Source: Escherichia coli (GTDB lineage: Bacteria; Pseudomonadota; Gammaproteobacteria; Enterobacterales; Enterobacteriaceae). From it: a DNA stretch of 64,000 nucleotides. The notes under the pieces were generated by a model. It saw only the letters and a program-made list of their open reading frames with translations. It ran no database searches and was not told the origin of the DNA. The stretch lies in the NCBI RefSeq assembly GCF_045037415.1, contig NZ_CP173440.1; one strand, 5' to 3'. Shown here piece by piece: positions 5,414-52,376 of this stretch; position 1 is the first letter of the stretch; each line of letters begins with the position of its first letter. Made by a program: the position numbers and the translations under genes.

Positions 5414-6502
5414 TTGGTGGCGTCGTTTTTGCTGACGTTGTTAGTGTTTAGCGTCATACGAGTACGTAAATGGAAATGCGTCAAAGAAACACTAGCTATA
5501 GTATCTTTTGTATACTTACTTAACTTTATAAAAGGTTACCTGAAAATGAACACCAATGTACATCATGTCCAAGAAAATTTTTATATATCATTGCAGGATT
5601 GTATAAATAAAGAAGAGAAAACAAAAAAAACATGCATTGAGTACTGGCGACGTGAAGCTGAGAGGGCGAAGGAAGAAAGCGCAAGACGTAGAGCACTGTC
5701 TATAAAGATAATTACCGAAAAAAGCATGATTCTTGAAACGTTATTTCTAAATATACAAAAAACAAATGCGCTCAAAGAACAGTATGAAAGAAACCTGATA
5801 GCTAAATGGGGTGGCGTTATTGATGACGATAAGACAAAGGATTATGGTATATTCCTCCCTAGTTTGGAACATTTATCTGCTTATGTATCATGTGCAAAGA
5901 ACGATGAATATAGCAGGGAAGTGCTTTATAACAGACCCGAATTATCAAGGGGTATCAAGTATGACAATAGTTATTACTGCCCGCAGGAAAAAAAATTCAT
6001 CTATATGAGGAATGACAAATTTCGTCCAGATCTTGAACTTCTGACAAATCCTCCTTATCCTGATTTTTGTAAGAATTTACTTTACTTTTATGTCAGGTCA
6101 TTTTCGCTGCATCTCAAAAAAGGAGAGCCTGGGAAACCATTGGAGATAGGTATTCGCAATTCAGTGAGCAAAAACACTTATGAAGACTTGTGTATAGGTC
6201 TGGAAATACTTATGCCATACATGTGCAAAACTGAAAGCGGCAAAGTGATTATTAATGATGAAGGATACTTATCATGTGATAGCTATTATAGAAGCATACT
6301 GGTTAACCCGAAAACAGGGGGGGCTGAGTTAGTTATATACAGAAAGGGGCGCTTTGACCATCGACAGAAACCGAATACACGAGAACCTCGTAAGTGGTTG
6401 AATGAAGATATAATAATTAAAGAATTTCCTAACATACGAATTGTTTTTCTATATATCATATCGTGTCGGTATCAGCAGCACTTCAAAAACAGGGATATAT
6501 AG
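5414..6502 (+). CDS. hypothetical protein
   Basis: Long ORF in low-GC DNA; start uncertain (in-frame ATGs at 5414 and 5546). No recognisable motif. Confidence 0.3.
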   Translation: MVASFLLTLLVFSVIRVRKWKCVKETLAIVSFVYLLNFIKGYLKMNTNVHHVQENFYISLQDCINKEEKTKKTCIEYWRREAERAKEESARRRALSIKIITEKSMILETLFLNIQKTNALKEQYERNLIAKWGGVIDDDKTKDYGIFLPSLEHLSAYVSCAKNDEYSREVLYNRPELSRGIKYDNSYYCPQEKKFIYMRNDKFRPDLELLTNPPYPDFCKNLLYFYVRSFSLHLKKGEPGKPLEIGIRNSVSKNTYEDLCIGLEILMPYMCKTESGKVIINDEGYLSCDSYYRSILVNPKTGGAELVIYRKGRFDHRQKPNTREPRKWLNEDIIIKEFPNIRIVFLYIISCRYQQHFKNRDI

Positions 6503-46333: not shown

Positions 46334-46728
46334 CGGCAGAAATACACCGGTTTAAAGAATTACTGATCTGGTTTTGCGAATACTGATATTGATGATACTA
46401 ACGGCCCACCGGCCTGTTGAGGAACCTGTAAAACGGAAAGGCTCATTGAAGCCGTATATTTTCTGGAGGTTCATCAGGCGCGGAACTCATCAAGGCGCGG
46501 GAATAAAATCCCATTCAGACGCCGGATAGATTCAAGCAAGCCAACTTGTCGTCAAAATCGGTGTTGCAAAAACGGGAGTGACCATAGATTCCGTTTTCCA
46601 AGCGGACCCCTTACTATAAATTTTAAGCGATCACCTGACCTTCCCTGCTGCGGACTAAGTTCTAAGTGAAGAAATCCTTGTGATCTTTTTATCTACTGTC
46701 AGACGAACCACGATAATGCGTGTCGATG

Positions 46729-46755
46729 AGAAAAAAAAACACCTTATAAAGGTGG
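46729..46755 (-). terminator. rho-independent terminator of the H-NS-like gene
   Basis: Hairpin CACCTT-TATA-AAGGTG followed by T9 on the minus strand. Confidence 0.5.
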
Positions 46756-46779
46756 TTTTATATAGCTACGGAAAATTGT

Positions 46780-47178
46780 TTAGATCAGGAAATCTTCGAG
46801 AGTTTTTCCTGAATCCAACTGAGCTTTAATTGGTGCCGGGGTACGACCCTGACCTGTCCAAGTTTTTTGCTCACCAGCTTCGTCTATATAAGCATATTTC
46901 GCCGGACGAGGTTCACGCTTTTTTCGTACTTTAATGTTAACGGCCGCGTCCATCAGTTCATTCGGATCTATACCATCAGCGATTATCATTTCCCGGTACT
47001 GAGAGAGTTTTTCTAAACGCTCTCGATTAGCTGCTTCGGCCGCCTTTTCTTCTTCACTGCGTTCAGTGACTACAACAGTGAACTTTTCTAATACTTCTTC
47101 GAGCACTTCTAATGGCAGCTCTCGTGCCTGAGCGCGAAGTGTACGGATGTTATTGAGAACCTGTAATGTCTCGCTCAT
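46780..47178 (-). CDS. H-NS-family nucleoid-associated protein
   Basis: [20 protein letters not shown]…[16 protein letters not shown]…TWTGQGRTP matches H-NS/StpA along its length. Confidence 0.85.
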
Positions 47179-47514
47179 AGTTACCTCTTTAAGCACATTG
47201 TTATGCAGTTACATAACAACATTAAATTAATTAAAAATTTTCAGCAAGTGGCTTCGCAAGTTAAATTATTTCAATCGAAAAACATCTTAAAAAGGAATAG
47301 CTCTCATGCTGATTCTATCTTCCTTAGACAGGATACTTCCCAGTTTGTAAATTCACAATCTTGAAAAAAACACCTCAAAAAATCTGTCTCTTTGGTTATG
47401 AATTAATCGTTGAATTCAATGTAAAGAGGTGTTGTAATTGTAAAAGTCACCAGGCAAATAATCAATACAATTTAGTTCGATATAGTGAAGATCTAAATGT
47501 CATTCCTTATGTAT

Positions 47515-47994
47515 TTATTTATTCGCTTTGCGCCATTGACGTGGTTCAATCGAGTTCGGGTCCGACCACAGACCTTTACCTGCATTGCGAGCGTTCTGCT
47601 CAAGAGTCCCATATTCAGGTACAGTTAATCGACCCTGATAGCGATATGCCCAGGCCATGCCTTCTGCAACCATGATGGAATTAATATCCTGGCTTTTAAG
47701 ATAGATTGTACCAAGCATACGTCCATAGGCGTCCTGCCCATGGTCCTGAATATTTACAATCTGGTTTGCGACCAACTGGATCATTGTCTGCTTAGCCTTC
47801 TGCCCGAAGGCTTGCTTACTTTCAGGGGCATCAATTCCATAGAGCCGTATTCTTGTATTTATTGCACCGTCATAAGCCTGTACAGTATCACCATCAATTA
47901 CTCTGACAACTTTTGCCGAGAAAGTTTTGGCAATTGAAGTCAGCGGTGTTGTTAAAAGAAAAACAGCCAGCGGGAAAATGGCTAACTTGGTCAT
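47515..47994 (-). CDS. secreted thermonuclease (staphylococcal-nuclease-like) family protein
   Basis: Signal peptide and SNase-like motifs (VIDGDT…RLYGIDAPE…). Confidence 0.7.
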   Translation of the reverse strand: MTKLAIFPLAVFLLTTPLTSIAKTFSAKVVRVIDGDTVQAYDGAINTRIRLYGIDAPESKQAFGQKAKQTMIQLVANQIVNIQDHGQDAYGRMLGTIYLKSQDINSIMVAEGMAWAYRYQGRLTVPEYGTLEQNARNAGKGLWSDPNSIEPRQWRKANK

Positions 47995-48177
47995 CCGGAT
48001 GTTTATCATTGGTTGTCTCTGGGTGATAATCATAAAATGTGAGTTGAGGGTGAAATCACAACGATTTTGAAAATTTACTTTCAAAGTATTTGTTACTTTA
48101 TTAACTACATGCTATTGTGTCAATGTATATGAAAATTATTGCCAGAGGTGAATGACAACGCATCTCAGCTCAGTAAA

Positions 48178-48186
48178 GGGGGGGGG
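48178..48186. repeat. G9 homopolymer immediately 5' of an ATG
   Basis: GGGGGGGGG directly precedes the ATG at 48187. Confidence 0.9.
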
Positions 48187-49136
48187 ATGTCGACTGTTAA
48201 TGATGTGATTATATCTTTTGGGGATGACAGTAAAAGGTACTCAAGAGACTTCCAGACAAAAGACGAATTTAAAAAGAGCTGGTACGCAGTTTTGTCCCGG
48301 GCGCATGCTTCTGTAGAAGCTAAGGTTAGCTGCTCGTGTAAAGGCAAAGGACAGAAATCACTTTCCGTAAAATATAACTCTGGCGGTGATACTTATTTCT
48401 TGGCACGGTACCCAAATACGGGTAGTCAACATTCTCCCGACTCATGTATTTAATTGTAGGTGCATACCCTTCAACACCTCAGGTGATGAAAAATATAAAA
48501 ATGACATCAGATGCTCTGAAGAAAAAGGAGAGTTTGATTTGTCTCAATGTTCTATCGAAATACAACCCTGAAAAACATTCGAATACATCAAAACGACTTC
48601 CTGTCAAGTTCTTTTCTGGTGTTCTGATCGTGCTGATGAATACTGATAACTGGGCATCACTGGAGAAGAGATTCAGCTCTGAAATAGCAAATTGGCGTTC
48701 AGGAGGCAACGTCATCTGTATTGCTATAGGCGAGCTAGGTAAATTTAAGGGGAATGATATATACTATCTTAAAACACTTCAGATTGCTTTGATGAATGTT
48801 GATGATAACTAGATCCCGGCAGACTCGAGCTATGAACTGACCATGCTAAATTATCTTCATAAGCATGAGCGATCATTTATAAAACCTCTGAGATATGATG
48901 CTTCTAATAATGATGTATTCCCGGATTTCTGCCTGACGGATATAGGGAGTACTGAACTTTTTCCTATTGAGGTATTTGGTATGGATACTGCTTCATATTT
49001 GGCACGTAAGGTGATCAAAGAAAGTTACTATAATGAACGATATGGAAAGGATGGTTGGGCTTCATGGGAAGCACCGGCTGGCCCCCTCCCCATCTGCCCG
49101 ATAAGGCCAGCAGTTAACTACCAAATGCTTCTGTAA
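48187..49136 (+). pseudogene. possible single gene broken by one frameshift and one in-frame stop
   Basis: ORF 48139..48453 is in frame 1; ORFs 48444..48812 and 48843..49136 are both in frame 3, separated by a TAG at 48813. Confidence 0.25.
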
Positions 49137-49673
49137 GGGCTTCGGCCCTATTAAAAATATCAGCCATTTTTTAACACATAGTAATAGAATCCGATTCAAA
49201 GTGATTCTCACATGGTCTCAGAAAGTAACTTTTTTAGGTTAATCTTTGTTATAGAGCTATTAAACCATAACTTCTGAAAATATCTTTTATTCTTATCTTT
49301 CAGTTATCATAATGACTTTTTAGATTAAGCCCCTAGTTTGAATGTGTTTGTTTGAAAAAATATTTTATAAAACATATTATGGTTAATTATTTGGTTGATG
49401 TTTTATTTCAAACATATCTACTTTACTCCTGCATGGATAGGTCTGCACATCTTGCCGCAAGATCATAAAATAAAAGTACAATTATGCGTTCTATTGAAAA
49501 CAGGACCTGATATCATGGACGATTCCACTCCCCTGCTCGTTCCCCCAACCAAAAGATAAAAGTAACTTTTGAGGCTTAAAGGGTTTCATCCCTGATGTTC
49601 TTCATCCAGCGATTTTAATACTGCCCCATTAACCGGACAGAAATCATCCGAATATTTTCTTTTACATTGCCGC

Positions 49674-51252: not shown

Positions 51253-51843
51253 TCAGTAAGTTGGCAGCATCACCAACCTTATGTACCTTTTGCAGCCAAA
51301 TTTTCTTGTTATTTTGCTTTGGTAGCATGATAGCATTTTTTCTTCAATTTTTAGTTGACTTTTTATTTCATTAATGCCCCCATTTTTCAGTAGGCATTGC
51401 AGCACTGCTTGTTCCTTTTTTGTTAGCCGTGGATAATGGTTTACAATTCGGCTAACATTTTTCTTTAAGAATGCAAAATATAGTTTTTCAATATTATTTT
51501 TTACATTTCCTTGCATGTTAACATAGATGTCATAATCACACCCTTTAGGATAAAACCGCCCCCCCCCCGAAACGTCAAGCCACATCCATTGGCTTATCAT
51601 ATTTAATGATCCCCTTAACATTTTGTACCCTCCCCATTTCCCTGAATAAAAAATCCTGCTGTCAACCAATACTCTTATGTTTCTTTTGTGCTTAATTGCT
51701 ATTGATTTATTAACTACTCCTTCATATGTAATATGAAACAGAGGTAGTCCAGTTAACTGCTTTAGGCCATAATAAAAAAAATAATCATCAGTCAACACTA
51801 TGTTTACATCCTTGTTACATATAAAGTAAATATATTTTTCCAT
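51253..51843 (-). CDS. LuxR-type HTH regulator, 3' end fused to the IS1 terminus, with internal G10 tract
   Basis: C-terminal LuxR-like HTH (LTKKEQAVLQCLLKNG…KITRKFG). The last ~7 codons come from IS1. The C10 run at 51559-51568 encodes GGG within the ORF. Confidence 0.45.
   Translation of the reverse strand: MEKYIYFICNKDVNIVLTDDYFFYYGLKQLTGLPLFHITYEGVVNKSIAIKHKRNIRVLVDSRIFYSGKWGGYKMLRGSLNMISQWMWLDVSGGGRFYPKGCDYDIYVNMQGNVKNNIEKLYFAFLKKNVSRIVNHYPRLTKKEQAVLQCLLKNGGINEIKSQLKIEEKMLSCYQSKITRKFGCKRYIRLVMLPTY
51559..51568. repeat. C10 homopolymer (G10 on the coding strand) inside the LuxR-type ORF
   Basis: Ten consecutive C at 51559-51568. Confidence 0.9.
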
Positions 51844-52376
51844 AGAAACAGTAACTTTGATCCATCAATATTCATCCAAAAATATTTTATAAGCATTAAA
51901 AAAAAAAACAACAGAGAATCATTTCTCTTGAAAGTCGTTGGTTACAATTTTTAATGAATAAAAATTCAATCAATCACGGTAAATAGTCATTTTTTTTGTC
52001 TTTGCGTGTTTGCAATTAATTGATCTTTTTTTTTAACCCGCCCCCCTTTATTTTGTCAGTTTGCTTAATAATTCACGATTAAAGATGTGTGGGGAGGGGC
52101 GAGTTTAGGACTTATTTTAAAATCCTTATCAAATAAATACTTTCGCAAAAAACAATTCGCTTAGTAATACTGTCTGTTTCTATAATAACCATGGTAATTA
52201 GATTTCTGAAAAATATGTTCAGATTACCACTAGTGTAACAGTTGGTGCTTGGGAGTTATTTGGCGATTGATCCGACCACATGATCCAGGCTAAATACCCT
52301 CAAAGTAAATTAATATATTGTTCTCCTTGATATCCGGCCCATTTTTTGATTTAATTTCAAATGATAACTGTATAAG

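Follow-up and report, generated by a model that had tools for sequence, protein, structure and literature searches.

The 64,000-nucleotide stretch of DNA analyzed here (the window) contains the sequence cagtaaaGGGGGGGGGatgtcgactg, in which nine consecutive G residues (positions 48178 to 48186, plus strand) run directly into an ATG (48187 to 48189). What does such a tract do in front of a gene, and can changes in its length switch that gene? A sequence-only reading, whose span of 48178 to 48189 covered tract and ATG together, had placed the run in a ribosome-binding site or an N-terminal extension, expected length changes to alter translation initiation or frame, and suggested a silenced contingency locus. 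The nine-G run (G9) does abut the start codon as described. From the window sequence, the position of the tract relative to orthologs, its predicted duplex with the anti-Shine-Dalgarno sequence, and its length variants in public records, we conclude with considerable confidence that the tract is the Shine-Dalgarno (SD) region of a DUF1173 gene that became, in the course of evolution, a homopolymeric slippage hot spot, and that in the window it is a slippage-prone, functionless relic before a gene that died from lesions independent of the tract.

The replicon can be recognized from its relatives. A 1.5-kb query around the tract matched 960 plasmid records, 479 of them with at least 99% identity. 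Nearly all of the latter are large Klebsiella pneumoniae virulence plasmids or virulence-resistance hybrids (pLVPK, pK2044, and pKpvST147B_virulence among them), and the E. coli set contributes 19 records at the same level of identity, the majority of which are described as derivatives of conjugation assays or bear the names of laboratory strains. Judged by these matches, the window is K. pneumoniae virulence-plasmid backbone. Its gene neighbors, following the annotation of a near-identical record, are an aldo/keto reductase gene, IS4321, an H-NS-family gene, a thermonuclease gene on the minus strand, two fragments named “DUF1173 family protein,” IS1, and peg-344. The thermonuclease (SNase) gene, at 47515 to 48009 (minus strand), is also recognized by Pfam PF00565 (92 bits) and is transcribed divergently. 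A GerE/LuxR Pfam match at 51253 to 51843 on the minus strand corresponds to rmpA. Between IS4321 and the H-NS-family gene lies a run of nine A residues (46731 to 46739) that reads A8 plus C in 416 plasmid records and A9 in 50. The C>A substitution that lengthened this run is specific to the ST147-type hybrid-plasmid lineage, and the A9 allele therefore assigns the window to that lineage.

The ATG at 48187 to 48189 is the conserved DUF1173 start, being the start that PGAP assigns to all intact 1272-bp (423-aa) orthologs. The orthologs come from plasmids of Klebsiella, Raoultella, and E. coli, several with a conjugative typing (MOBH/MPF_F), and are divergent from the nuclease gene, as in the window. 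The closest intact gene (locus L005, on NZ_CP024497) matches PF06666 (DUF1173) at residues 27 to 384 with 155 bits against a cut-off of 25, a significant Pfam match over the approximately 360 positions by which we judged family membership. The family is widespread: tblastn located it in 3,485 plasmid records, and typing assigns 2,558 of these to conjugative plasmids. Alignments to many of the distant homologs begin at residue 1, and the N-terminus MST(V/I)NDVI is conserved among the orthologs. Pairs of intact genes have dN/dS values of 0.05 to 0.10. The intact orthologs are under strong purifying selection, and it follows from these values that the gene is functional where it is intact.

The literature on DUF1173 consists of a single 2010 prediction, which describes a protein of about 400 aa whose N-terminus bears a CxC...Hx3-5C zinc motif and whose C-terminus would adopt a degenerate PD-(D/E)XK-like fold that lacks the catalytic signature (PMC3045609). 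Our searches for a function found neither a PDB relative by sequence nor a PADLOC model nor an NCBIfam match. The genes around the family members, including those at 1687 to 2505 of L002, offer some hints. On IncHI2- and IncHI1-like plasmids (L015 and L016), a distant DUF1173 gene is located just 3′ of a DNA cytosine methyltransferase gene and a small ORF. On the Klebsiella plasmids, DUF1173 is found near an H-NS-family gene, a phospholipase-D-family gene, and psiA, with the SNase nuclease gene divergent. Such DNA-handling or plasmid-entry neighborhoods may hint at what DUF1173 does.

In the window, the homologous region (48187 to 49136, plus strand) is 98.9% identical over aligned columns to the intact NZ_CP024497 gene, and its reading frame is broken. 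The ORF that begins at ATG 48187 comprises 88 codons and ends with a stop at 48451 to 48453; the remaining homologous sequence lies in other frames, and the copy is split into pieces of 88, 108, and 97 codons. Three lesions were found. The first, evident from the alignment to L005, is a 340-bp internal deletion with its junction at 48442/48443. Its length (3 × 113 + 1) makes it frameshifting, and it takes out codons from about 85 to 198, starting at the last Cys of the N-terminal CxC...HxxxC zinc motif. Since the 1501-nt query aligns without gaps to the plasmid records at 99% identity or more (roughly 480), the deletion is common to all of them. Microhomology was considered as its cause and rejected: the 5-bp motif ACTGT occurs near both ends but predicts another junction. 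The second lesion is a TAG stop (48810 to 48812) that arose by G>A at 48811, where all compared records have TGG (Trp). None of the near-identical records compared has this TAG, and neither PLSDB nor the E. coli set holds a perfect 1501-nt match; the substitution is either a very recent mutation or an error of the source sequence. The third lesion, again relative to L005, is a 1-bp deletion at 49087/49088, where an A was lost from CCCCCTACCCC and the last 11 or so codons are altered.

Compared with L005, the copy has accumulated 7 non-synonymous changes, 3 synonymous changes, and 1 nonsense change. The resulting dN/dS of 0.64 comes from small numbers and is in keeping with relaxed constraint. 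With its split ORF and a deletion at the zinc-motif Cys, the window copy does not pass as a full-length DUF1173 protein, although the 216-aa C-terminal fragment of the near-identical records is still recorded as PF06666. By alignment, it is a pseudogene of the DUF1173 family and no functional member. None of the three lesions involves the tract: in every G9 record, and in those with G10, the ORF from the ATG ends at codon 88, and no tract length that we tried in silico restores the gene. The sequence-only reading was thus correct that the downstream frame is broken, as the 88-codon stop and the alignment to L005 confirm. Its idea of a silenced contingency locus goes too far: the silencing came from the 340-bp deletion, the nonsense codon, and the 1-bp deletion. 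A second, independent pseudogene allele of DUF1173 encodes the 163-aa product P0006, which is found on 176 contigs of an L002-like lineage with G6CTT before the start and carries a frameshift near codon 150. On Klebsiella plasmids, DUF1173 was thus lost at least twice, although intact copies are under strong purifying selection.

The relatives of the window show what the tract was before the gene decayed. Upstream of the ATG, an IncHI2 homolog (42% amino acid identity) carries TAGGAGACTACT and an IncHI1-like homolog (41%) carries AGGAGGTCCC, the SD position of distant homologs being occupied by AGGAGG or TAGGAG. Relatives at 87 to 92% have AAAAGGGGG-CCT or AAGGGGGG-CTT, that is, G5-6 followed by CCT or CTT. 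The closest intact clade has AAAG8-T (L007 and L008), AAAG9-T (L005 and 11 further records), or AAAG10-T (L006), and the virulence-plasmid pseudogene has AAAG9, within the context CTCAGCTCAGTAAA-GGGGGGGGG-ATGTCGACTG. The tract aligns column for column with the SD of orthologs and distant homologs, directly before the conserved start.

Pairing energies agree with this placement. We used RNAduplex against the 3′ end of 16S rRNA, with the standard anti-SD sequence, and obtained −10.7 to −11.9 kcal/mol for every variant; the window tract reaches −11.2 kcal/mol versus −11.5 kcal/mol for the canonical AGGAGG homolog (L016). With the most favorable register, 3 nt remain before the AUG. Pairing prefers to anchor at the AAAGGGGG end, so every further G adds 1 nt to the spacer. 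The run is complementary to 16S rRNA, lies a few nucleotides 5′ of the start, and holds a position conserved in orthologs. We infer from position and thermodynamics that it is the SD element of the DUF1173 gene, and the proposal of a ribosome-binding site is upheld by both the ortholog series and the anti-SD duplex. Like other G-rich non-canonical SD sequences, it is complementary to the CCUCC anti-SD core with one G:U pair, equals the AGGAGG of a homolog in duplex energy, and stands where orthologs have their SD before the ATG. Unlike them, it is a 9-nt homopolymer that reaches the start codon, which makes its pairing register ambiguous and the element mutable.

The ortholog series suggests how an SD could become a homopolymer. 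Ancestral related plasmids would have had a G-rich SD with a short spacer before the start (AAGGGGGG-CTT-ATG). In one clade, the spacer was probably converted to G, first as G8T, giving a run long enough to slip to G9T and G10T; in the virulence-plasmid lineage, the last T would then have been lost or changed to G, leaving the run against the ATG. The first G lies nine bases from the ATG in G6CTT, in G8T, and in the G9 of the window, and because this span is shared, spacer-to-G substitutions can explain much of the run; for G9T and G10T, slippage is needed as well. The nearest relatives of the window are L005 and L006 (98.8%), and the G9 of the window may descend from G8T through a T>G change or from G9T through the T dropping out. 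Since the tract is a long G:C homopolymer, single-base gains and losses would follow by slipped-strand mispairing, a mechanism suggested by the observed polymorphism. As any five of the G residues could pair with CCUCC of 16S rRNA, a change of length would shift the SD-AUG spacing by about one nucleotide and leave the DUF1173 frame untouched. The decay of the gene would have begun with the fixed 340-bp frameshifting deletion, with the nonsense codon, the 1-bp deletion, and the mostly non-synonymous substitutions coming later. With the gene already inactivated and drifting neutrally, tract length would change without consequence in the window.

The tract does vary in length among public records. 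We counted lengths by exact matches to 80- to 82-nt probes in 508 plasmid records and found G9 in 423, G10 in 29, and G8 in 19. The other records (about 37) include G9T (12 records), G8T, G10T, and two 83-base spans, which would need a still longer allele. Because G9 is the modal length and is also the length in the reference plasmids pLVPK (NC_005249) and pK2044 (NC_006625), the tract is no error of the window. Some of the differences are cleanly isolated. Between L005 (K. pneumoniae, Australia) and L006 (K. variicola, Japan), all 1469 aligned bases match, yet one has G9T and the other G10T. Similarly, the ST147 plasmids pKP88_vir (CP137424) and pKP86_vir (CP137363), from one UK study, differ over 39.3 kb in the tract only, and their A9, A8, and G8 runs agree. 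Products annotated on contigs give a further view: a 100-aa product that only G10 can yield is present on 64 contigs, among which are numerous short draft contigs and a record from the 2013 era, while products compatible with G9 are present on at least 999, on 367, and on 7 contigs. We confirmed G10 on five contigs, among them a draft TPA assembly and HG518478. The latter record (HG518478.1, locus L020 at 3623909 to 3625011) is chromosome-sized, at 5.49 Mb, and carries the nuclease/DUF1173 segment with a second DUF1173 fragment called as 230 aa rather than 216 aa; it could represent chromosomal integration of virulence-plasmid DNA or another lesion pattern.

In principle, miscalling of homopolymers in long-read sequencing or assembly could account for the whole polymorphism around a stable G9. 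Part of the deposited variation certainly is artefactual. The assembly of L009 (NZ_CP068016.1) is noisy, with G5 at the tract and bases lost from other A/T runs nearby, and NZ_CP137386.1 departs from its siblings at two homopolymers, with G10 at the tract and A9>A8 1.45 kb away. Because of such assemblies, surveys of the tract from assemblies alone overestimate its variation. G9 and G10 calls are also mixed among near-identical plasmids of one study, and all 19 near-identical records from E. coli transconjugants have G9, which indicates that the tract is not wildly unstable. Artefact as the whole explanation nevertheless seems improbable to us. G9T recurs in its 12 records under several unrelated accession series; G8T, G9T, and G10T tell lineages apart; and the G10-dependent product on 64 contigs includes the draft and older records named above. 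A further argument comes from the A run 1.45 kb away in the same assemblies (mostly A8, and A9 in the window lineage), which is unchanged in 466 of 507 records. The remainder are mostly divergent lineages, and indels amount to about 2% or fewer, so the tract varies at least 5 times more than this nearby A8/A9 run. For the G10 run of rmpA, used as another control, we obtained 361 exact and 73 near matches, and length heterogeneity is about 10% at the tract versus at most 17% at rmpA.

A second possibility is that selection shaped the poly-G into a reversible switch for DUF1173 expression, by way of either the SD-AUG spacing or the frame of an upstream ATG, and that the virulence plasmid carries a dead copy of it; in intact orthologs, the switch might still be active. 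Several observations favor it. With nine bases, the tract reaches the homopolymer cut-off of at least nine used for phase-variable repeats (bioRxiv 10.1101/2025.09.12.675794, section 10), and intact genes that are otherwise 100% identical differ in tract length alone. Moreover, an 18-codon ORF that passes through the tract (48152 to 48208, plus strand) starts from an ATG at 48152, which is preceded by GAGG at a distance of 3 nt. One extra base (G10 or G9T) puts this ATG in frame with DUF1173, and the fusion product is 435 aa with G9T or 100 aa with G10; PGAP indeed uses it as the start in the G10 record NZ_CP137363. Poly-G phase variation also operates at rmpA on the same plasmid (bioRxiv 10.1101/2025.09.12.675794).

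Against a switch stands the position of the tract: it lies upstream of the conserved start and cannot frameshift DUF1173. The expectation that length changes would alter the frame therefore holds only for ATG 48152, and this ATG is not conserved. L013 and L014 lack it, its SD is too close (1 to 3 nt), and we consider it probably fortuitous and its short ORF probably not functional. Two further codons, TTG 48139 and GTG 48148, are in frame with G9 and served as starts in old annotations (104 aa in pK2044 and 101 aa in pLVPK). We also considered an N-terminal extension or an upstream ORF as the real start; it is unlikely, given a 5-bp insertion in L002 that breaks the frame and the loss of ATG 48152 in L013 and L014.

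Nor do the data point to control of initiation or transcription by tract length. Every tract length leaves a strong SD and a usable spacer a few nucleotides long, so that switching of initiation is not borne out, and any effect of length is predicted to be small and at most graded. A sigma-70 scan predicted no plus-strand promoter upstream near the tract. The best promoter-like site, TTGACA-17-TAAAGT at 48123 to 48095, is on the minus strand about 55 nt from the tract and serves the divergent nuclease gene. We rejected a promoter-spacer role because this only good sigma-70 site is on the opposite strand and excludes the tract. A known RNA element in the 5′ UTR was rejected as well, as an Rfam E-value scan of 46400 to 49600 gave only a chance snoRNA match inside an ORF.

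The distribution of the tract also speaks against a switch. A long run is confined to one small, shallow clade, with stable G5-6 plus CTT in its relatives and AGGAGG in distant homologs, and hence we see no sign of selection keeping a switch. In the window itself, the gene was killed by lesions that no tract length can repair. With a contingency locus, the tract shares repeat length and polymorphism among isolates; a switching position, rescue by repeat number, and conservation across the family are what it lacks. Both features on which the sequence-only reading had staked its case exist: intact homologs at L002, L005 to L008, and L012 to L014, and length variation, with G8 to G10 between isolates and G8T to G10T in intact genes. 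Overall, we think that selection for a switch is unlikely, and we retain the reading of the tract as a homopolymer-evolved SD.

A chance homopolymer is the weakest alternative. No other G run in the window reaches eight bases (G7 at 6317 comes next), and the only longer G/C run is C10 at 51559 to 51568, within rmpA; on composition alone, G9 is unusual yet far from wildly improbable. Although the 0.12 (iid) to 0.14 (first-order Markov) runs of nine or more G expected in the window are not negligible, a chance run unrelated to translation initiation is very improbable in view of the alignment with ortholog SDs directly before the conserved start and of the stepwise path from G6CTT that can be read in extant sequences.

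Homopolymers in comparable positions are known from classical contingency loci, in which the poly-G of Moraxella catarrhalis uspA1 and the poly-G/C of Neisseria porA and opc lie upstream of start codons. Like G9, these are G/C homopolymers of about 9 to 11 bases outside the coding region, where length could grade expression. They differ in that they occupy the promoter spacer or 5′ UTR of intact surface-protein genes and have a measured length effect, whereas G9 overlaps no predicted promoter, precedes a pseudogene, and has a small predicted effect on the SD.

A closer comparison is offered by rmpA, for whose poly-G reversible high-frequency slippage has been demonstrated experimentally in a survey limited to the rmp locus (bioRxiv 10.1101/2025.09.12.675794). 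The rmpA G10 (51559 to 51568) lies on the same KpVP-1-type plasmid 3.4 kb from G9, is the same type of repeat, and has nearly the same length. The two tracts have a similar spread of non-modal lengths in public plasmids, presumably by slipped-strand mispairing in both. The rmpA tract, however, is inside the ORF (bases 276 to 285), where a one-base change toggles a full-length regulator with a strong phenotype, while G9 is in the 5′ UTR of a dead gene. The rmpA tract is also reported in all rmp lineages (bioRxiv 10.1101/2025.09.12.675794), and G9 is not conserved across the DUF1173 family.

The rmpA copy of the window has peculiarities of its own. Its ORF (51253 to 51843, minus strand) runs into the inverted repeat of IS1 (GGTGATGCTGCCAACTTACTGA), the end of IS1 being at 51274; the last codons, VMLPTY*, derive from IS1, and the 3′ truncation falls at about codon 190. 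We did not see rmpD or rmpC downstream of rmpA in the window. The longest homopolymer in the window is a run of 11 A residues at 51898 to 51908 (T11 on the rmpA strand), which lies 55 to 65 nt upstream of the rmpA start codon and may correspond to the promoter poly-T with a reported influence on mucoidy (cited in bioRxiv 10.1101/2025.09.12.675794).

On its own, G9 matters little, being a mutable homopolymer before a pseudogene with no plausible phenotype in this plasmid. It does call for caution with annotation: start and product calls (88, 100, 101, and 104 aa) flip with tract length and gene caller and lead to spurious “DUF1173 family protein” entries. Because a near-neutral G9 and rmpA show similar heterogeneity, the tract can act as an internal control that separates mutational input and sequencing noise from selection when rmp phase variation is studied. 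Less probably, on the intact genes of Klebsiella IncFIB/MOBH conjugative plasmids, G8T, G9T, and G10T might form a slippage-driven rheostat or a three-state switch of DUF1173, with G9T giving a 435-aa isoform; we hold this to be a long shot. If it were true, the plasmid family would have a second SSR-controlled locus beside rmp, and the dead virulence-plasmid copy would serve as a neutral yardstick for poly-G slippage when selection on the rmpA tract is gauged. Should the tract of the intact orthologs modulate DUF1173, it would offer an initial way to approach what this widespread plasmid gene does.
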